Source of the DNA: Candidatus Aminicenantes bacterium
GTDB taxonomy: Bacteria > Acidobacteriota > Aminicenantia > Aminicenantales > Aminicenantaceae
Length of the DNA: 64,000 nt
NCBI GenBank assembly: GCA_014727835.1
Contig: WJMT01000129.1
Location: 2,036-66,035, forward strand
Direction of reading: 5' to 3'
In this document: piece by piece, positions 37,756 to 49,896 of the stretch
How positions within the stretch are numbered: position 1 is the first letter of the stretch
Layout of the letters: each line of letters starts with the position of its first letter
Translations under genes and position numbers: made by a program
Notes under the pieces: model-generated
Seen by the model: the letters and a program-made list of their open reading frames with translations, nothing else
Databases searched by the model: none
Told to the model about the DNA's origin: nothing

Positions 37756-38388
37756 TCATTTCAAGTATTTGAAAAAATAATCTGAAACTGGACCGTGTTC
37801 TTTCCAATTTTTGAATTCTGTTTCAGTCCAGTCATGGTTGCTGTAAGTCACTTTCATCCATTGAATCCGGTCCCTTTGGTCTACTCTGAATGCAATGGAT
37901 TTGTAGGTCAGATTTGAAGTTCCCTTGGGTTCAAGCCTATACTGATCCTTGCTCTCATCATAGGTGATCTCATAGTTATTCTTGATTTCTGTTTTGGTTT
38001 CACCGAGCACCGGGATCAGAAGACGGGGCATTCCTTGCTGGGAAGTCAGGTCTTCAAAATCATAGGCCTTCACTTCTCCCAGGTCATGATCGATGATGTG
38101 TATGGTCTGGCCGTCACAATACAGCTCATAGTTTTCATCCCCTTTGAGCTTGATCCGGAAAAAGTGGGGATATTTGTAGTGAAAGGTGCCGTGCAAAGAG
38201 ACCTCATCCACAAGAAACTCTGTGCTTTTGGTCTGCTTGATATCACAGGTGATCAGATTTTGATCTTTCAGCTGTTTTTCCCATTTGGTGAGAAGCTCAT
38301 CAATGTCCTGACTTAAGGAAAAATGAACAGTGAAGACAAAAAAAACAGACAAGAACAGCAAACAGAAAAAAATGGATTTAAATCTCAT
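37756..38388 (-). CDS. LolA-like periplasmic lipid/lipoprotein carrier
   Basis: Signal peptide MRFKSIFF; F.Q.K...L....G.F.YK.P..F, CDGQ, D.TETEF pattern; ATGA overlap with the MMPL gene; AAGGAG RBS. Confidence 0.75.
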   Translation of the reverse strand: MRFKSIFFCLLFLSVFFVFTVHFSLSQDIDELLTKWEKQLKDQNLITCDIKQTKSTEFLVDEVSLHGTFHYKYPHFFRIKLKGDENYELYCDGQTIHIIDHDLGEVKAYDFEDLTSQQGMPRLLIPVLGETKTEIKNNYEITYDESKDQYRLEPKGTSNLTYKSIAFRVDQRDRIQWMKVTYSNHDWTETEFKNWKEHGPVSDYFFKYLK

Positions 38389-40898
38389 AGGTGACTCCTT
38401 TTCAGAAAAGAGGGGAGAAGAAACATAGTGAAAAGCCAGCAGGCAAAAATTCCAAAGCTCACGATTTTTCCGGTGTTGGAAACCAAAGGGGAGGAAGAGA
38501 GCAAAAGGGTGAGAAAGCAAATCATGGTGGAAGCTGTGGTGAGGGTGAGCACCGGAGCGATCTCCCTGAGGATTTCAGAGATATCTTTGTCAGGGCTGCT
38601 TATTTTTCGGTGGATGAGATGCACAGAGTCGTCAATGCCGATTCCAATGACCATTGCCACCACTCCGATCAAGGCAGGAGAGAATCGAATGGACAAGAGA
38701 GTCACCAAAGCAAGAGTCAGAGGGATGGCCCCTATTAAGGGCAGCAGAGAGACCAATAATAATCGAATTTTTTTGAAGTATAACAAAAGGATGATGGAAA
38801 TGATTCCTCCGGCCCACAGGCTGATGGAAACGAAATCCCTTTTGATGATGGTGTTGACCGATTGGTGAACCTGATAAGTCCCTGTGAGCTGCTTTTCAAT
38901 ATAGGGGGGAGATGGAAGATTTTCCAGCTTCTCAGAAACACTGAGCAGAAGATCCTGTTTGGCCAGCTCTTTTTTTGGCCACACATAGGTCTGTAAAAAG
39001 AAATGCTTTCCCTGTTTTTTTATGAAGCGGGAGAAAGAAGGATGATCGGATAATGAAACCAGATTCTCCATTTTGAAAATCTCTTCCAAAAGGTCATAGT
39101 ATTCTTTATGACGGTCCAGGACACGGAATCCGGATCGGTTCATCTGTTTGAAAAAAAAGGAACGATTCTCTTTGATCCGGGAGGAAACATCACAGATCTG
39201 AGCCAGGCGGGCCTGCACCTGATCCTCAGGAACATAGAACATAGAGGGTGAATAAAATCCGGTAATTTTCTCTTCTTGAGCCAGTGCAATGAGGTGCTGA
39301 TCCAAATTTTTTTGATACTGCATTCCTTTGGAAAGCTGGTCTGTCTTGAGAGTGACTTGAGTGCTCAATATAAAGGAAGAACCAAATTTTTGGGAAACAT
39401 GCCGGGCGTTTGTAAGTGACGGGATATTCTGGGGGAGCAGTTTGAATAAAGACATATCGAATCTCAGATTCATCATCACCAGGATTGACAGAATGATGAT
39501 GCTGAAAGCAGCGATACGGCTGAAGTCTGTTTTTTTTAGGGACAGGCGGTACAAGATGCGGGGCAAAGCTCCTAAAGAGGTCAGCTTGACCTGAGCTGAG
39601 GAACGGGGCTTCAGCCACCTCACCACCGCGGGAAACAAGACCAGGGTCACAGTTAAAGACAGGAAAAGACTGATGCTTGTGAGCAGTCCGAACTGTCTGA
39701 GAGCAGGGTAGCGGGAAAAGCTCAACACCAGAAATCCGCAGGCTGTGGTGGTGATTCCTATGAATAAAGGGGGACCGCAGTCAGTCAGAGTGATTTGGAG
39801 AGCCTTATCCAGGGATTTTAGTTTTTTATGATATTGGAAAAAACGGCTGGATAAGTGGAAAGTGATATCCACTCCCAGGCCCAATACAATTGCAGCAAAT
39901 CCAATGGAGATCATTTTCAAAGGATTGAAAAACAGGCTTGCGACCAGAAGAGAGCCATACACAGAGAAAAAGATAGGAAGAAAACACATCAGGGTAACCT
40001 TCAGGTTTCTGAAGACCAGAATGAGCAGGGTGAAAATAAGGATCGATGAGATCACATTGATCACAAAGATTTCTTTATTCAGGATGGAATGGGTTTCTGC
40101 TGTGAGGCCGTATTTTCCTGCAAATTCACAGGTTATGGATTGAGAGCCCGGAAGAGATGATTTGATATGCATGATTTTTTCACTGATCTCTGTGGTGAGT
40201 TCAATGCAGTACTGAGTATCTTCCCCTGAACCGCGTGGCTGGGCAAAGATCAGGCGGGAAGACATGTCTTGTGAGTCAAAGTAAAAACTGTGTGGTGAAA
40301 TTTTGTAATTGGCCATAAAGTTTTTGAGCCAGGATTCAAGCAGCTCCCTGAGATGGAACACATCCACAGCAATCAGTTCTCTCAATCCGGGATGACCGGT
40401 CATCACGACCTGTTTTCGGGTTCGAATGATCTCTGTTTGGATTCCTTGTTCTGTGAATTTATCTGAAAACAAGGATAGATATTTGTCAGGATCTTGAAAA
40501 ATCACTGCCCGACACATTTGTACCAATTGGTCTTGCTCAGCCAAATCAAATAGTCCGGACTGCACATAACGGATCTCCTTCATGCCCGCAAGCTCTTGGA
40601 CCAATGCTTGAGTGAACTGATCTCTCACCTGCTCATCGGTCTGAGAATGCTTCTGCAGGAGGACCAGGGGAGTGCTCTCTCCGAATCTTTTGTAATTGTC
40701 TATAAAAAGCTTGAATTCTTTTCCGCGCAGACCTTTTGCGTCTAAAAGCATGGGTTCGATTTTTAAATTTTTCAAAAGCAGCGGCCCTGAGATCAGTACC
40801 AAGACGGAGACAAGAAGAATGATCCTGTGTTTTCTGTAAGAAAAGAGGGCCAGGGCAGAGAAGAAGCCAGTTATTTTTTTATAAAATTTAGGTTTCAT
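38385..40898 (-). CDS. MMPL/RND-superfamily lipid exporter
   Basis: Two TM repeats with GLGVD and GIGIDD motifs and large periplasmic loops. Confidence 0.88.
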   Translation of the reverse strand: MKPKFYKKITGFFSALALFSYRKHRIILLVSVLVLISGPLLLKNLKIEPMLLDAKGLRGKEFKLFIDNYKRFGESTPLVLLQKHSQTDEQVRDQFTQALVQELAGMKEIRYVQSGLFDLAEQDQLVQMCRAVIFQDPDKYLSLFSDKFTEQGIQTEIIRTRKQVVMTGHPGLRELIAVDVFHLRELLESWLKNFMANYKISPHSFYFDSQDMSSRLIFAQPRGSGEDTQYCIELTTEISEKIMHIKSSLPGSQSITCEFAGKYGLTAETHSILNKEIFVINVISSILIFTLLILVFRNLKVTLMCFLPIFFSVYGSLLVASLFFNPLKMISIGFAAIVLGLGVDITFHLSSRFFQYHKKLKSLDKALQITLTDCGPPLFIGITTTACGFLVLSFSRYPALRQFGLLTSISLFLSLTVTLVLFPAVVRWLKPRSSAQVKLTSLGALPRILYRLSLKKTDFSRIAAFSIIILSILVMMNLRFDMSLFKLLPQNIPSLTNARHVSQKFGSSFILSTQVTLKTDQLSKGMQYQKNLDQHLIALAQEEKITGFYSPSMFYVPEDQVQARLAQICDVSSRIKENRSFFFKQMNRSGFRVLDRHKEYYDLLEEIFKMENLVSLSDHPSFSRFIKKQGKHFFLQTYVWPKKELAKQDLLLSVSEKLENLPSPPYIEKQLTGTYQVHQSVNTIIKRDFVSISLWAGGIISIILLLYFKKIRLLLVSLLPLIGAIPLTLALVTLLSIRFSPALIGVVAMVIGIGIDDSVHLIHRKISSPDKDISEILREIAPVLTLTTASTMICFLTLLLSSSPLVSNTGKIVSFGIFACWLFTMFLLPSFLKRSHL

Positions 40899-43077
40899 AA
40901 TTGAAATTGAGCAGACCTGTGATCATCAGTTTGATTTGAATTTTTGCCTCGGTCATAGGGATGACTCGGGAGAGTTTTTTCCATTCTTTGTCAATCATGT
41001 CTGCCGCTTCTTTTTTGCATAGGGCGAGAACTCCGGAGTTGTAAATCAAGTCTGTAGCAGCAGCCAGTTGTTCCGGTTCCTTTCTCCTTTTTTTTGAACA
41101 CAAAATCGACAACAGGATCTCTGACTCTTTGTTCTCTAAACACTGGATGGCTCTGTGAATGACATAGGTCAGTTTTCCAGAAGAAATGTCTTCTCCGGGT
41201 TTTTTGGTCCATTCCGGAGATTTACTGAAGTTGTGTATGTCATCGATAATCTGGAAAGCAGTGCCAAACGCAGCGGCCATGGCTCTGTATCTCTGTCTGA
41301 CCTGATCGCTGGATTTGGCAATCACACAGGCTGCCTCACTGCCTCCCACTACAGCAGCTCCTGTTTTTTGTGCATACATCTGTAAGATCTTATCTTCCAG
41401 AGAGTCCTCACTCCAAGTTTTATAATGGTCTTTGGTTAAGTATTTAGACCAGTAAATGTCCATGGCCTGGCCAAAATGGGCTTGGATCATGGTTTGGTTT
41501 GTGATCTCAAGCAATTTTCTTTTCTGGTCTTCATTGAGAAGTGAATTGTTCTGGATCAAAAGCGTTGGCAGAAAATACAATATGCATCCGGCATTGATGG
41601 CAACATCTTTCCCGTACTTCAGATGCAGGCATTTTTCACCTCTTCGGATAAGGGATTTGTCTTCAATATCATCGATAATCAGGGCTCCGGTGTGGTTGAG
41701 TTCCAATGTGCTGCAGATCAATGTTTCATAAGGTTTGGGGTCCACACCCAGAGATTCCAAGGCCAGAAGCCCGAATACAGGCCTCCATCTTTTTCCTTTC
41801 CTGGAAATCAGGTCCCAAACAGGTTCGGAAAGCACAGACGTCAAAGCCTCAGGGTCGTGTTTCCATAGTGGTTTTCCCGCGAACTGTTCCATATGCGAGC
41901 TTTTGATTTTTTTCGGCAGAAATGATTCGATGACCCGGTCAATTTTTTGGGAGAAGGCTTGGAGATGCTTTTTGTAATCAAACAGATAGCCATAACCGTG
42001 CAATTCCAAACGGGCTCTTCCGGAAATGTCCTGACCGTCAATGGATCCTCTCACTTCTCCAGCACCTTCCCAGATGGCACGGATAACTCCAAAAAAAGGG
42101 ATTTCCTGGTCCTGATGAAAGGGAGTAAAATGGAGCTGGGCTTTGAGTTCTGGAATGGTGATCTTCCATTGGATCGGATAGATGATGTGTGAGTGGGGGC
42201 TTTCCCAAAAGCCGGTGGGCTCCATGATGATATCATTGAGGGCTCGTGAAGGAGAACCAATGGGACGGTACAATCCTCCCTGTTTGATGAGCTTATTTGA
42301 TTCCATATCCCTGTGTGCAGTGACCACCATGTCAGAACCATCATTCAAGTTGATCCCGATCCAGTCCCATCCCAGATACCTTTTTTCGTCAAGTTTTTCA
42401 ATGAACCAGTTGTTGAAATCACCCCATTGATGGTCCATCCATGCGTTACCTTTCACCGTCAGAGAATTGATTTTCCCTGATAAATTCATTCGGGGATACG
42501 TGTTGTAGCAAGTCGTTTCCAGGTTGGGCAGGTCACGATCATGAAGATGTATGACTTTTTGCTGAGGGATTAATTTCAATTGGATGAATTTTTGACTTGA
42601 AGGAGCCTTGAATGACAAGTGGAAAGCCTGGCTCTTTTGCACCAAAGAAAAATCACCCCAGCGAATTGTGAGCGGTTTGCCTTTTAGGTCAACAGGATCT
42701 GAGATAACTTTTATGGGAGAGGGAGGTCCGTAAGTTTTGATTTCCTTCATATAAGCTTGAAAGAGAACAGGATCCAGATTTCCTGATTCCTCTTGAAGGA
42801 GAAGAAAGGTCTCATTCAAATTTTTAAGAACATCTCGGTGAATCTGGCTGATAGAGTGAGAAACATTTTTTTTCAGGTCCAGATTAGAACAAATGAGATA
42901 AAACACCTGTTTGTCTTTTTCAGGAGGATCTTTTTTGATTTTTTGGCGGAACAAAGAGAGCATAAAATAGTTCTTATCAATCTGGGATCCTTCAAAAAAT
43001 CCTTGAAAAAACCACCATTCCAGAGGAGTCTCAAAATGAGGGGACTCGTCAGCTAGCTTCACATTTTTTTCTTTCAA
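40888..43077 (-). CDS. Fusion of AttH/CrtC lipocalin-like domain and polyprenyl diphosphate synthase
   Basis: N-terminal EWWF, WMDHQWG, GWDW, YPIQW, DQE, WEG, ELHGY; C-terminal GKRWRP, IIDDIED.S..RRG, GQAMDIYW, KTG, FQIIDD, ED...GK. Confidence 0.85.
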   Translation of the reverse strand: MKEKNVKLADESPHFETPLEWWFFQGFFEGSQIDKNYFMLSLFRQKIKKDPPEKDKQVFYLICSNLDLKKNVSHSISQIHRDVLKNLNETFLLLQEESGNLDPVLFQAYMKEIKTYGPPSPIKVISDPVDLKGKPLTIRWGDFSLVQKSQAFHLSFKAPSSQKFIQLKLIPQQKVIHLHDRDLPNLETTCYNTYPRMNLSGKINSLTVKGNAWMDHQWGDFNNWFIEKLDEKRYLGWDWIGINLNDGSDMVVTAHRDMESNKLIKQGGLYRPIGSPSRALNDIIMEPTGFWESPHSHIIYPIQWKITIPELKAQLHFTPFHQDQEIPFFGVIRAIWEGAGEVRGSIDGQDISGRARLELHGYGYLFDYKKHLQAFSQKIDRVIESFLPKKIKSSHMEQFAGKPLWKHDPEALTSVLSEPVWDLISRKGKRWRPVFGLLALESLGVDPKPYETLICSTLELNHTGALIIDDIEDKSLIRRGEKCLHLKYGKDVAINAGCILYFLPTLLIQNNSLLNEDQKRKLLEITNQTMIQAHFGQAMDIYWSKYLTKDHYKTWSEDSLEDKILQMYAQKTGAAVVGGSEAACVIAKSSDQVRQRYRAMAAAFGTAFQIIDDIHNFSKSPEWTKKPGEDISSGKLTYVIHRAIQCLENKESEILLSILCSKKRRKEPEQLAAATDLIYNSGVLALCKKEAADMIDKEWKKLSRVIPMTEAKIQIKLMITGLLNFNYET

Positions 43078-43244
43078 TGATATTTGGCATTAATATACCA
43101 GCAGGGGAATATATTGCAACTTTTGTTTATCACACAAAGAAAAAAAATATTTTTTTTGAGCTCTTTTTATGGAAGAGAAGGAATCCCCAGGGGAATGATC
43201 TAACAAATCCCGCCACTTGTTTGCGAATGGTCCGGGGCCGTGAT

Positions 43245-44168
43245 TTATTCCAAAATATTCAAAGCAGAAGGAAGAATAGAGGCTTGAAAATCTCTAATCC
43301 CAGGAATGATTTGGCCGTCGTATTGAATATTGATCGGCTCTTGAGAAGAGACTGAAAAACTTTTATTTTGGAGATACCGAATTTCTTTTTTGTGCTTGTG
43401 TTTTTGCCTCCATACAGAGTAAGCAAACCGGGCTGTGTGCATGAAAGAAGTGGTGTGAATGATGCTGCAGTCCAGTTTTCCGTCAAAGGGAGAGGCCCAA
43501 GGACACACCCTCAGTCCTCCGGCATAACAAGGAACATTGGAAAAGACCACAATGGAAGATTCAATATTGTGTGTGGAGTCATCTGAGGACAATTGAATTT
43601 TCATGGGAATGTTTTGATGCTGGAAGGAATGGCGGGCTCCTAAAAAACCAGCCCAGACCTGGATGAGTTTTCCGTATTTAGCCCGCAGGGGATGTTGCTT
43701 CCAGTAATGAGCCACAAATTGATTGATGGTGGCCCCCAGGCCTAGACTGAGAGAACCCACGAAATAAATTTTTTCTGACCTTCCTTTTATTTCCAGTAAA
43801 CCAAGGTCCATCTGCCGGGTTTTGCTCTCCAGCAAAGATTGGATTGTAGAATCAACGGAATGGATTCCAAGAGACATGGCAATGTCATTGGCAGAACCCG
43901 TGGGCATGAGATACAGAGTGGGTTGATAGGGGCTTTTGTGAATCTCAGAAGCAGCGATCTGAAAGGAGGTATCCCCACCCACGACCAGAATGACTTGGAA
44001 TGACCTGGCTTTTTCTTGAGCCAGCTGTCTGAAGTGGTTTTCTGATCGGGAACAGAACCATTGGAAAGGTATGGAGTTCTGCTTTAACAGGGCTTTGATG
44101 CGGTCTTCTTTTTTTAAGGACAGCCCCCGCCCAGAGGACGGATTGAACAGAATGGCCATTTTGTCCAT
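43245..44168 (-). CDS. Diacylglycerol/lipid kinase family (DAGK_cat, YegS/DgkB-like) with variant motifs
   Basis: NPSSG, GGDTS, PTGSAND, YAGG, DGKLD, YDGQ. Confidence 0.82.
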   Translation of the reverse strand: MDKMAILFNPSSGRGLSLKKEDRIKALLKQNSIPFQWFCSRSENHFRQLAQEKARSFQVILVVGGDTSFQIAASEIHKSPYQPTLYLMPTGSANDIAMSLGIHSVDSTIQSLLESKTRQMDLGLLEIKGRSEKIYFVGSLSLGLGATINQFVAHYWKQHPLRAKYGKLIQVWAGFLGARHSFQHQNIPMKIQLSSDDSTHNIESSIVVFSNVPCYAGGLRVCPWASPFDGKLDCSIIHTTSFMHTARFAYSVWRQKHKHKKEIRYLQNKSFSVSSQEPINIQYDGQIIPGIRDFQASILPSALNILE

Positions 44169-47496: not shown

Positions 47497-49896
47497 TCAG
47501 ACCATATTTTTCAGCTTTCTCAGAGCACTCATAGCGTCTCCGGCATATGCATCAGCTCCGCATTTCTGTGAAAAGGCGGATGATACAGCAGCTCCTCCGA
47601 TGATAATCTGAATCTCAGGAGCCTTCTTCTTTTTGAGCTGAATCACTTCCTCAATGTATTCCAAGGAAGAGGTCATCAGTGCGGACAGGCCGATGAATTC
47701 ACAGTTTTCATTCACAGCTGTTGAAATGATTTCCTTTGAAGCCACATTTTTTCCCAAGTCTATGACTTCAAAGCCTGAATTGCTGAGCACTAAGGCTACA
47801 ATATTTTTTCCGATGTCATGAAGGTCGCCTTGGACCGTAGCCAGGACGATCTTTGATTTTGTTTGAACCGGTCCTTTTTCCGGAAAAGTTTTTTCAATGA
47901 TCTGGGAAGCACCCTCCATGGCTTCTGCTGAAAGAATCAATTGAGGGAGAAAATATTTTTTCTGTTCATAGTATTGTCCCACTAATTCCAGGGCAGGAGA
48001 CAATATTTTTTTCAGAAGTTCAAGTCCGTTCTCTCCTTGTTCAATGAGATGCGAGGTGATTTTTTGGGCATCTTTTTTTTCTCCCTCCACAATGGCATTG
48101 AACAGTTCATCCTTCTTGGATTGGAATGCTGGTTTCTGTTCTGTTTCTTCGGCCTCTTCTTGGACGTTTCCAAAAGTGCGGATAAATTGGCGGAGTCCGG
48201 GATCTTTGCCCTTGAATGTATCGCAGGCTTTTGTGGTGTCCATAAGGTCTTTGTCCAGAGGATTGAGAATAGCTGAATCCAGACCTCTGTCAATCGCCAT
48301 GGTGAGAAAGATTTGATTCAGACGTCTTCGGTTGGGGAGGCCGTGGGAGATGTTGGATAATCCCAGAACAGAAGGTGTTTTCATCTGTTTGATTTTTTTG
48401 AGTGCAGCCAGAGTCTCTGAAGCGCTTTTCGGAGAAGAGGCATGGGATAATACAATCGGATCAATGAGGATATCGGATTTTGTGAGTCCGTATTCATAGG
48501 CTTTTTGGATTAAATGTTCAATGATGTTGATTCTTTGGTCTGAATTATCAGGGATGCCCCTATCATCCATGGCTAATAGAATCACTCCAGCCCCGTATTT
48601 TTTAGCAAGGGGAAGTAATTTTTGGTATTTCTTTGTCTCCCCACTGATACTGTTGATAACAGCTTTTCCCGCATAGCACTGGAGTGCTTTTTCAAGGGAG
48701 GAAGGATTGTTGTTATCTAAAAACAAAGGAAGCTTTGAAACAGACTGGATTTCCAGAACAGCTGAAGAGAAAAAATCCGGGTTTTGGTCTCCGGATTGGC
48801 CCAGGTTGATATCCAGGGCATGAGCTCCGGCCTGTTCTTGTCTTCGGGCCAAGCTTCGGGCCAAGCTGAGTTTTTCCGATTTGAATTCTTGGTCCAATTC
48901 TTTTCTGGAAAAGGGATTGATGTTTTCGCCCACCGCCTTGAACGGCTCTGAACCTCCGATAAACAGACAGGAATTTCTGCTCGAACTGCGAAAATAAGAT
49001 GGGATCCGGGCTCTTTTTTGGGGCTTTTTCCCCTTAAGCTTCTCTGCAATGAGTTTGATGTGCCGGGAAGAAGTGCCGCAGCATCCACCAATGATGTGGG
49101 CTCCGGACCGATAAAATTCAACAGCATATTTCAGATATTCTACAGGGCCCAGGGGAAAGCGGATCCTATTTTTTCTTTTCTCAGGGATGCCGGCATTGGC
49201 ATAGACGATCAGGGGCTTATCTGTATGCATTTGGTATTGATTGAGAGCGGATTTGAAGTCCCGGGGATGTCTTCCGCAGTTGATTCCCACAATGTCTGCG
49301 GAAGTGGATGAAAGAGTGATGGCAGCGGTTTCGGGATCTGTTCCTGTGACCGTAAGGTTTTCCTCCAGAGGATAGGTGATGGATACAGCAATGGGCAGTG
49401 ATGTGGTTTCTTGAGCAGCCAGAAGAGCTGTTTTGGCCTCAAGAATATCGATTTGTGTCTCAATAAGAAGAAGGTCTGCTCCTCCTTGCTCCAGCCATTG
49501 AGACTGTTCTGCAAAAACCTCATACGCTTGTTGAAACGTGATCTCTCCGAGGGGTTTGATGAGTTCACCCATGGACCCAATCGAACCTGCGATATACACG
49601 GAATGTGGGCTTGCTGCTCTTTTCGCCAGTTCCAAAGCCGACAGATTGATATCTTTGCATCGATCTTCCAGGCCGTATTCAGCGAGCTTGATTCTGTTGG
49701 CTCCCAGGGTGTTGGTCTCTATGATATCAGCTCCTGCATCCACAAAAGCTTTATGGATCCGGATGATGACTTCAGGATCTTCCAGATTGAGCTGTTCAGG
49801 AATGTCAAATTGTTTCCCTGTTTGTTCCATGACTTCAGTACCCATCCCTCCGTCAAGGATCAGAATTCGGTCTTTAATCTCTCTGAGAATATTCAT
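47497..49896 (-). CDS. metH: Cobalamin-dependent methionine synthase core (Hcy-, folate- and B12-binding domains; no reactivation domain)
   Basis: LDGGMGT, GINC, GGCCG, GENIN, DLHDIGKN, SALM; ends right after the B12 domain. Confidence 0.88.
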   Translation of the reverse strand: MNILREIKDRILILDGGMGTEVMEQTGKQFDIPEQLNLEDPEVIIRIHKAFVDAGADIIETNTLGANRIKLAEYGLEDRCKDINLSALELAKRAASPHSVYIAGSIGSMGELIKPLGEITFQQAYEVFAEQSQWLEQGGADLLLIETQIDILEAKTALLAAQETTSLPIAVSITYPLEENLTVTGTDPETAAITLSSTSADIVGINCGRHPRDFKSALNQYQMHTDKPLIVYANAGIPEKRKNRIRFPLGPVEYLKYAVEFYRSGAHIIGGCCGTSSRHIKLIAEKLKGKKPQKRARIPSYFRSSSRNSCLFIGGSEPFKAVGENINPFSRKELDQEFKSEKLSLARSLARRQEQAGAHALDINLGQSGDQNPDFFSSAVLEIQSVSKLPLFLDNNNPSSLEKALQCYAGKAVINSISGETKKYQKLLPLAKKYGAGVILLAMDDRGIPDNSDQRINIIEHLIQKAYEYGLTKSDILIDPIVLSHASSPKSASETLAALKKIKQMKTPSVLGLSNISHGLPNRRRLNQIFLTMAIDRGLDSAILNPLDKDLMDTTKACDTFKGKDPGLRQFIRTFGNVQEEAEETEQKPAFQSKKDELFNAIVEGEKKDAQKITSHLIEQGENGLELLKKILSPALELVGQYYEQKKYFLPQLILSAEAMEGASQIIEKTFPEKGPVQTKSKIVLATVQGDLHDIGKNIVALVLSNSGFEVIDLGKNVASKEIISTAVNENCEFIGLSALMTSSLEYIEEVIQLKKKKAPEIQIIIGGAAVSSAFSQKCGADAYAGDAMSALRKLKNMV

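Follow-up and report, generated by a model that had tools for sequence, protein, structure and literature searches.

A conserved fusion of an AttH/CrtC-type barrel with a prenyl diphosphate synthase, encoded beside a putative lipid pump in Candidatus Aminicenantes bacterium

A gene on the minus strand of contig WJMT01000129.1 from Candidatus Aminicenantes bacterium (GenBank assembly GCA_014727835.1, positions 2,036 to 66,035; this whole stretch of 64,000 nucleotides is called the window) joins in a single protein an N-terminal AttH/CrtC double beta-barrel and a C-terminal trans-isoprenyl diphosphate synthase. This fusion gene is real and under selection. Because it is apparently co-transcribed with a lipid export pump, its protein is probably involved in the production of an undescribed envelope lipid. 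The reading that is preferred here, to which roughly even chances are given, is that the protein would be a geranylgeranyl diphosphate (GGPP) synthase combined with an isoprenoid hydratase, both of them feeding an exported envelope lipid. The two halves belong to well-known enzyme families, and no published function of the fusion has been found in the literature.

The sequence-only reading from which this analysis started had reported an uninterrupted open reading frame (ORF) of 729 residues, and its span proved to be exact; nevertheless, it missed the strand and also the export operon, which is the strongest clue to the role of the protein. Read on the plus strand, the segment from 40888 to 43077 is interrupted by many stops. 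The true start probably lies five codons further in, at the GTG in position 43062, because an identical database protein of 724 amino acids begins with MKLADES and the close homologues begin likewise. All the motifs that had been quoted for both halves are present in the translation: the barrel contains WMDH (residues 213-216), WEG (336-338) and ELHG (358-361), and the synthase contains the stretch HTGALIIDDIEDKSLIRRG (462-480), which includes the first aspartate-rich motif (D469, D470 and D473, with Gly464 at -5 and Ala465 at -4), as well as HFGQAMDIYW (534-543) and FQIIDD (608-613). A domain search with Pfam gives CrtC (PF07143; residues 132-219, E 1.9e-13, 51.9 bits), Lipocalin_9 (PF17186; 234-362, E 6.1e-23, 81.8 bits) and polyprenyl_synt (PF00348; 415-674, E 2e-51, 175 bits against a cut-off of 27), all of them above the Pfam curated cut-offs. 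NCBIfam recognises the synthase half alone, under every equivalog cut-off. An AlphaFold2 model built on an alignment of 28 sequences reached a predicted local distance difference test (pLDDT) of 89.9 and a predicted template modelling score (pTM) of 0.89, and in this model the two-domain arrangement is confidently fixed.

A word-indexed search of 5.8 billion proteins revealed at least 120 relatives, nearly all of 690-790 amino acids, with the same three Pfam domains and 39-68% identity. Their named hosts belong to Aminicenantes, Ignavibacteriales, Omnitrophica, Nitrospirae, Planctomycetes, Verrucomicrobia, Acidobacteriota and Actinobacteria, and a scan of metagenomes added 491 stretches with the fusion, confirmed by tblastn. 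One member is encoded on a finished plasmid of a cultured organism, Streptomyces canus NBC_01585; this protein of 747 amino acids, WP_326658639.1, keeps the synthase residues, its barrel motif reads W-F-E-Q-D-W-G, and its gene lies beside those of an ABC ATPase and a permease. Residue conservation was counted in 119 full-length homologues, to which the counts given below as fractions of 119 refer; averaged over pairs of them, identity is highest in the synthase (0.50) and falls to 0.41 in the linker and 0.37 in the barrel. It had been admitted from the beginning that the fusion might be an assembly or read-through artefact. To this the analysis leaves practically no probability, and nothing in its favour came to light: separately assembled genomes of many phyla share the architecture, which recurs in the 491 metagenome stretches and on the finished Streptomyces plasmid, the linker is conserved, the two-domain model is confident, and the full-length homologues keep both sets of residues. 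In the source databases these proteins are named only 'polyprenyl synthetase family protein' or 'geranylgeranyl pyrophosphate synthase/predicted secreted hydrolase'.

An exhaustive HMMER search with the barrel alone returned 2335 cluster representatives at a threshold of E<=1e-3, of which 89 also pass E<=1e-30. Among the best 91 relatives (cluster representatives, E<=2.3e-30), 59 also carry the first aspartate-rich motif of the synthase, 48 of them with at least 680 amino acids and 11 with 460-679; a further 28 are shorter than 460 amino acids and lack the motif, many being probably truncated at contig ends. A separate search limited to shorter proteins gave only 13 matches, of which at most two (P0125 and P0126) are credible stand-alone barrels, the others being fragments.

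Within the class, 22 of 339 genomes, covering 14 of 95 genera, gave a match to the fusion at E<=1e-60. Seventeen of them hold an intact copy, three a contig-end piece or a frameshift (G280, G244 and G322; G numbers are genomes, C numbers contigs and L numbers loci), one a broken copy (G283) and one a related stand-alone synthase only (G329). The copy of G283 (locus L008) is decayed, with four internal stops within the match, and in that of G322 (L118: 5422-7292) the barrel and synthase ORFs lie in different frames with an overlap of 175 nucleotides. Genome G236 carries two full-length fusions on contigs C62 and C8, 61% and 44% identical to the window protein, so the two clades of the family are paralogous or were separately acquired. 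In a sample of the same phylum, the full-length fusion was found in none of the other 200 genomes, a tally that takes in the unpublished genomes G024, G049 and G152, on which nothing else reported here relies.

The C-terminal half has all the features of a trans-isoprenyl diphosphate synthase, since both aspartate-rich motifs and the Lys, Arg and Gln residues that bind isopentenyl diphosphate (IPP) are kept in 117-119 of the homologues. D469, D470, D473, R478, R479, G536, Q537, D540, K571, D613 and K635 are invariant (119/119), D612 is present in 117 and N616 in 100. Type III GGPP synthases are recognised by a DDxxD motif without the two-residue insertion and by small, non-aromatic residues at positions -4 and -5. 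This pattern is found in the fusion as G464-A465-L-I-I-D469-D-I-E-D473, position 464 being Gly in 115 homologues and Ala in 4, and position 465 Ala in 84, Ser in 33 and Thr in 2. PMC9729869 agrees on the small residues of type III, but prints the motif as DDXXXXD.

The best match in the PDB by sequence is the yeast GGPP synthase 2dh4 (E 3.6e-19). The prenyltransferase domain of PvCPS, a bifunctional copalyl diphosphate synthase from a fungus, ties with it, and a Pyrococcus enzyme scores 8.2e-18; by structure, the GGPP synthase of the archaeon Geoglobus ranks first (Z 35.5). Because the yeast enzyme is tied with archaeal and bacterial synthases, no special kinship to the eukaryotic type III enzymes is apparent, and the type III likeness proposed earlier stands only at the level of the motif. 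With yeast BTS1 and human GGPS1 the fusion shares the DDxxD motif with its small -4 and -5 residues, the DDxxN motif and the ruler residues, whereas it differs from them in being bacterial and in bearing an extra N-terminal domain. After allowing for the five-residue tag offset in 2dh4, the yeast ruler Tyr107, Phe108 and His139 aligns with Y501 (119/119), F502 (110/119, with Tyr in seven more) and H534 (118/119). According to the part of PMC9729869 that cites Chang 2006, these three residues halt elongation at C20, and their replacement by Ala leads to products of up to C70. From these residues, a C20 product, GGPP, can reasonably be expected.

The N-terminal half is an AttH/CrtC hydratase fold, both in its two Pfam domains and in its double barrel. 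Residues 7-364 of the model superpose on AttH NE1406 (2ich) with Z 32.3 and a root mean square deviation of 3.1 over 296 of 323 residues in VIA-align (Foldseek E 1.6e-17), and on kievitone hydratase (7a0q) with Z 28.2. Two Diels-Alderases of fungi, CghA and Fsa2, match less well (Z about 20), as does 9fzn, titled 25-phosphosteroid lyase (Z 19.1). Of the fold members that had been listed from the letters of the DNA, kievitone hydratase and the fungal Diels-Alderases were thus recovered by structure, and tocopherol cyclase appeared in no search. The barrel shares with AttH and kievitone hydratase the blocks EWW, W-x-D-x-x-W-G, GWDW, DQE, WEG and G..E..G.

Regarding the active site, PMC4717167 describes His239, Trp241, Tyr266 and Asp268 as essential in CrtC (Rubrivivax numbering). 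On a Roseobacter litoralis plasmid, the photosynthesis gene cluster encodes a bona fide CrtC, through which these residues were mapped; the H-I-W ... Y-F-D spacing of this CrtC fits the published numbering. The catalytic Asp268 aligns with D215 (118/119) and Tyr266 with W213 (119/119). Since Asp268 falls on this conserved aspartate, the general acid of the hydratase fold appears to be intact in the barrel, while in its details the site departs from that of CrtC. His216, which follows the Asp, is nearly invariant (118/119), where AttH and kievitone hydratase have Arg. E20, Q324/E325, E337 and E358 are conserved buried polar residues, and R333 and R356 are each kept in 115/119; AttH has R356 but not R333, and kievitone hydratase has neither. 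Compared with CrtC from Rubrivivax gelatinosus, Thiocapsa roseopersicina and Roseobacter litoralis, the barrel is alike in its Pfam CrtC domain, in the alignment of Asp268 and the neighbouring aromatic residue, and in the expected protonation of a C=C bond followed by capture of water at a tertiary carbon; it is unlike them in its identity of about 20%, in the lack of conservation of His239, in its fusion to a synthase and in the absence of carotenoid genes from the locus.

As had been stated earlier, no signal peptide is recognised when the sequence is read: the protein opens directly at the conserved DESPH..EWWF block, whereas the stand-alone AttH proteins in the alignment have 30-45 additional N-terminal residues with a hydrophobic leader. 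The loss of this leader suggests that the barrel has moved into the cytoplasm. Related to this, AttH NE1406 and kievitone hydratase (7a0q/7a0t) stand alone and are secreted or extracytoplasmic, unlike the fused barrel, which is leaderless and joined to a cytoplasmic synthase. In operons of Burkholderia YI23 and Rhizobium, the genes for an ABC ATPase and for a large permease (about 800 amino acids) are joined by a stand-alone AttH gene, which comes third and overlaps. In the genome of the window, the fusion is the only gene with Lipocalin_9. Another AttH-like protein, the archaeal Hgs, makes hydroxylated glycerol dialkyl glycerol tetraethers from unsaturated isoprenoid lipids on heterologous expression (bioRxiv 10.1101/2025.10.20.683597). 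Hgs resembles the proposed role of the barrel in being an AttH-family hydratase acting on double bonds of membrane isoprenoid lipids, but it is archaeal, stand-alone, paired with a radical-SAM desaturase and active on C40 tetraether chains; it is likened to the fusion by description and not by sequence.

The fusion gene and its neighbours are listed in Table 1. The gene overlaps that of an MMPL/RND transporter, which in turn overlaps that of a LolA-like carrier. The MMPL domain of the transporter scores 88.8 bits against a cut-off of 20.5. Its best NCBIfam matches are HAE3, the hopanoid transporter HpnN (153.6 against 751.85 bits) and the sterol transporter BstA (84.2 against 1400 bits), all under the cut-off; since these scores are far under the curated limits, HpnN and BstA are to be taken as relatives at the family level and not as orthologues. 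The carrier matches Pfam LolA (E 4.2e-13) and, under the cut-offs, NCBIfam LolA2_flexi (the flexirubin family, its best match) and LolA; its homologues have 210-227 amino acids. Pairs of MMPL and LolA-like proteins are known from aryl-polyene and flexirubin clusters.

Table 1. Coordinates in the window of the fusion gene, its domains and motifs, and the adjacent features
Feature	Position	Strand	Remarks
LolA-like periplasmic carrier	37756..38388	-	210 aa; hydrophobic leader; probable ATG at 38388; 4-nt overlap with the MMPL stop
MMPL/RND (HAE3-like) inner-membrane transporter	38385..40898	-	837 aa; ATG overlaps the end of the fusion by 11 nt
Fusion ORF	40888..43077	-	729 codons from TTG, no internal stop; stop codon 40888-40890
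C-terminal trans-isoprenyl diphosphate synthase, GGPP-synthase type (residues 411-729)	40891..41847	-	polyprenyl_synt; yeast 2dh4; Geoglobus Z 35.5
Second Asp-rich motif, D612-D-I-H-N616 (DDxxN)	41230..41244	-	alignment to yeast GGPP synthase
First Asp-rich motif, D469-D-I-E-D473 (DDxxD, no insertion)	41659..41673	-	
Helical linker, conserved (residues 365-410)	41848..41985	-	model helices 365-386 and 393-400
N-terminal AttH/CrtC double beta-barrel (residues 6-364)	41986..43062	-	Pfam CrtC and Lipocalin_9; structure matches
Motif W213-M-D215-H216-Q-W-G219	42421..42441	-	alignment to bona fide CrtC
Promoter-like site TTGCAA-16-TATATT with TG	43092..43119	-	consensus match only; weak (16 sites in the region against 9.0 expected)
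YegS/BmrU/DAGK-family lipid kinase	43245..44168	-	167 nt upstream of the fusion, same strand

Neighbourhoods were compared at 88 fusion loci, of which 8 are genomic and 80 metagenomic; 75 of the 88 have at least 2 kb of flank. The MMPL and LolA-like genes lie downstream of the fusion in the close clade (L001-L005 and L026-L028) and also at four distant loci (L096, L100, L103 and L105), where the fusion is 44-48% and the MMPL protein 31-33% identical. Across the 88 loci the recurrent neighbours include a MacB_PCD/FtsX permease (18), an ABC ATPase (15) and a LolA_like protein (5), and in one genome of the same class (G508) LolA_like, ABC, FtsX/MacB and fusion genes stand in a row. A pump or LolA-type neighbour (MMPL, FtsX/MacB, ABC ATPase or LolA) is present within 4 kb at 34 of the 75 flanked loci. 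One pump type is replaced by another, each of them with a LolA-fold partner, which points to an envelope lipid as the product.

Cyclase-like genes form the other recurrent group. An integral membrane protein of about 240 amino acids, of the lycopene-cyclase-domain family PF18916, occurs at 16 of the 88 loci; two of its members score 30.2 and 34.2 bits against a cut-off of 27 and others more weakly, with an Atlas score of 0.95. In genome G466, of the same class, such a gene follows the fusion with an overlap of 1 nucleotide. Squalene-hopene-cyclase-like neighbours occur at 9 of the 88 loci. Within 4 kb, a cyclase-like neighbour is found at 23 of the 75 flanked loci (15 with PF18916 and 8 squalene-hopene-cyclase-like), and several of them overlap or abut the fusion. 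With cluster 12 included (see below), 49 of the 75 have some recurrent neighbour. The fused AttH barrel, the lycopene-cyclase-domain proteins and the squalene-hopene-cyclase-like proteins belong to families that all protonate terminal isoprene units, so a substrate with a free omega-isoprene end would fit the three of them.

Just downstream of the fusion at five loci (L042, L053, L099, L089 and L047), the squalene-hopene-cyclase-like proteins have 544-678 amino acids, and in four cases their start overlaps the fusion stop by 1-10 nucleotides. They lack DxDD and have D-[A/Q/S]-T-[A/T] aligned there (D-A-T-A, D-Q-T-T or D-S-T-A), which resembles the D-C-T-A motif of oxidosqualene cyclases. Cluster 12 (L068, L069, L084 and L102), whose proteins of about 320-345 amino acids adjoin the fusion, has no Pfam match and shows acidic motifs of the type REW(D/N)DL and LDDA(A/S)D(V/I)ERD. 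Its nearest named Atlas cluster, as a lead only, is tetraprenyl-beta-curcumene synthase (DUF2600; 0.90), and it may be a terpene-synthase-like partner. Cluster 6, divergent and upstream of the fusion at nine loci (L056, L060, L067, L070, L077, L081, L082, L085 and L086), is a membrane protein of about 343 amino acids with a leader, a TPR-like stretch, a conserved CLIVTATFGSP...SFRDD block and no significant Pfam family; PhoU_div and PHO4 pairs are also present at L060, L067 and L082. Cluster 9 resembles the antisense ORFs of GC-rich DNA. Pfam matches of ten unclassified adjacent genes were mostly to housekeeping families, with one GT2 glycosyltransferase family (L097 and L099). A protein with an LssY_C domain is encoded directly upstream of one copy of the fusion (L039: 2331-3371).

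The lipid kinase gene upstream of the fusion adjoins it in the close clade only, at seven loci (L003, L004, L005, L007, L026, L027 and L062), and its membership of the system is uncertain. A parallel with the 25-hydroxysteroid kinase was considered and set aside as loose: the paper on the latter speaks only of 'phosphotransferases' and leaves the DAGK family unmentioned. Further away in the window (47497-49896, minus strand) there is a methionine-synthase-like gene of 799 codons with homocysteine S-methyltransferase, pterin-binding and B12-binding domains, whose Pfam list does not include the C-terminal reactivation domain.

Taken together with these data, the preferred reading would proceed as follows. 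The cytoplasmic C-terminal domain would condense IPP with an allylic primer and stop at C20, giving GGPP, as its catalytic motifs and ruler residues suggest. The analogy with CrtC, kievitone hydratase and Hgs suggests that Asp215 of the barrel would then protonate a trisubstituted C=C bond of the geranylgeranyl chain or of a close derivative, and that the carbocation would most probably be quenched by water, yielding a tertiary alcohol. The MMPL/RND transporter would take the modified lipid from the inner membrane and pass it to the secreted LolA-like carrier, and this one to the outer membrane. The export step is proposed because the genes overlap and because a MacB-type ABC pump with a LolA-like protein recurrently replaces the MMPL pump in other lineages. 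The architecture, its conservation, the fold and the synteny are established by the data, and chain length, hydration, the identity of the cargo and export are put forward here as deductions.

Several observations weigh against the hydratase and envelope-lipid reading. The C20 chain length is read from only three ruler residues. Concerning the barrel, the His-x-Trp of CrtC (His239/Trp241) falls near T188-Y191, where there is no His, in a segment whose register is uncertain at about 20% identity; Tyr266 of CrtC is Trp213 in the fusion; and the conserved residues are equally kept in stand-alone AttH proteins of unknown function, so their conservation is no proof of catalysis. No recurrent neighbour accompanies 26 of the 75 flanked loci. 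Finally, a lipid pump would hardly be expected to carry a diphosphate, and neither a phosphatase nor a transferase nor a terminal synthase is encoded in the operon.

One explanation to be compared with the preferred one joins two non-consecutive steps of carotenoid synthesis in a CrtE-CrtC enzyme, in the manner of the fungal CrtYB, which would provide GGPP and, at a later stage, add water to the psi-end of lycopene or gamma-carotene. It is a serious rival because the window genome, besides matching Pfam CrtC in the fusion, carries on another contig (C44, locus L111: 6290-11309) a carotenoid cluster with IspH, CrtI, CrtB (phytoene/squalene synthase), a polyprenyl synthase and a lycopene-cyclase-domain protein. 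However, this cluster owns a separate synthase gene, and no more than 10 of the 339 genomes in the class have a member of the CrtB family (SQS_PSY), so the cluster is unusual for the group and may stem from horizontal transfer or from mis-binning. Of the 21 genomes of the class that carry the fusion (61-98% complete), only the window genome has SQS_PSY, and tblastn with its CrtI, CrtB and lycopene cyclase found none of them at the 88 fusion loci, so the co-occurrence with phytoene synthase and desaturase genes expected of CrtC proper is seen at 0 of 88. This comparison indicates that the substrate of the barrel is not in general a carotenoid or squalene derivative; the CrtE-CrtC explanation is largely refuted by it and was rejected as very improbable. 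An archaeal-type ether lipid route was also rejected, PcrB/GGGPS not having been found in the window genome (92% complete); nor was a squalene-hopene cyclase above the cut-off found there.

The remaining explanations concern the barrel. It could be a non-catalytic domain that binds the product of the synthase and hands it to the pump, keeping an ancestral accessory role of AttH, in agreement with the third, overlapping position of stand-alone AttH genes in ABC operons, with the pump neighbours kept in the fusion family and with the 2ich paper (PMC2954199), which associates AttH with LolD-type ABC transporters and proposes lipid transport. This seems unlikely, given that the Asp essential in CrtC (kept in 118/119) and the buried polar residues are needless for a simple carrier, that the fused barrel, having lost its signal peptide, is cytoplasmic and away from the periplasmic face of a MacB-type pump, and that every closely matching characterised member of the fold is an enzyme. 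The sequence-only reading had proposed a bifunctional terpene synthase with a non-canonical cyclase or hydratase domain; in the stronger version of this idea, the barrel would be a proton-initiated cyclase (with chemistry like that of tocopherol cyclase) and the protein a chimeric diterpene synthase. The combination of an AttH/CrtC domain with a GGPP-synthase-type domain has stood, and so has the analogy in domain order with fungal chimeras (PvCPS, fusicoccadiene, variediene and macrophomene synthases), which likewise combine in one chain a domain that modifies isoprenoids, at the N terminus, with a GGPP synthase at the C terminus, and whose prenyltransferase domains match the C-terminal domain at Z 23-30. 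Nevertheless, the N-terminal domains of these chimeras are alpha-helical class I/II terpene cyclases, whereas that of the fusion is all-beta in the model, without a metal-binding Asp-rich motif, and matches AttH-fold proteins only (Foldseek, VIA-align); the fusion is not one of them. The first step of such a cyclisation would be the same as that of hydration, protonation of an isoprene C=C bond, and the Hiseni paper (PMC4717167) draws a parallel with squalene-hopene cyclase. But the closest characterised relatives all quench with water, and the separate cyclase-like genes at 23 of the 75 flanked loci suggest that cyclisation, where present, is carried out by another protein, which makes a cyclising barrel clearly unlikely.

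Decidedly unlikely, too, is a barrel acting as a metal-independent (di)phosphate lyase or hydrolase, which would turn GGPP into a neutral hydrocarbon or tertiary alcohol for the pump. The AttH-fold match 9fzn invites this idea, since 25-phosphosteroid lyase activity takes a phosphate off a tertiary carbon of an isoprenoid side chain (PMC8449060 and PMC11061730); R333 and R356 are conserved, and no other enzyme of the operon could remove the diphosphate. Yet the match is much weaker than those to hydratases, and GGPP bears a diphosphate on a primary allylic carbon instead of a phosphate on a tertiary one. Because the preferred hydratase reading leaves the removal or replacement of the diphosphate unaccounted for, both the carrier and the lyase explanations stay alive beside it.

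Lipid exporters of two unrelated types accompany the fusion, and so do three sorts of enzyme acting on terminal isoprenes by protonation, which points to a whole lipid pathway. A broader proposal, possible but doubtful, is that the fusion is the committed enzyme of unrecognised envelope isoprenoid lipids: hydrated C20 chains, cyclised in some lineages by lycopene-cyclase-like or unusual squalene-hopene-cyclase-like partners and pumped to the outer membrane, which would serve as surrogates of hopanoids and sterols in mostly uncultured anaerobes without squalene or phytoene synthesis. If this is true, the AttH barrel would be a new, metal-independent 'protonase' partner of a prenyl synthase, and the products could explain orphan isoprenoid alcohols or cyclic terpenoids found in sediments. 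Confirmation of the preferred reading would add to the knowledge of bacteria a new membrane lipid and a new coupling of chain synthesis to chain modification.

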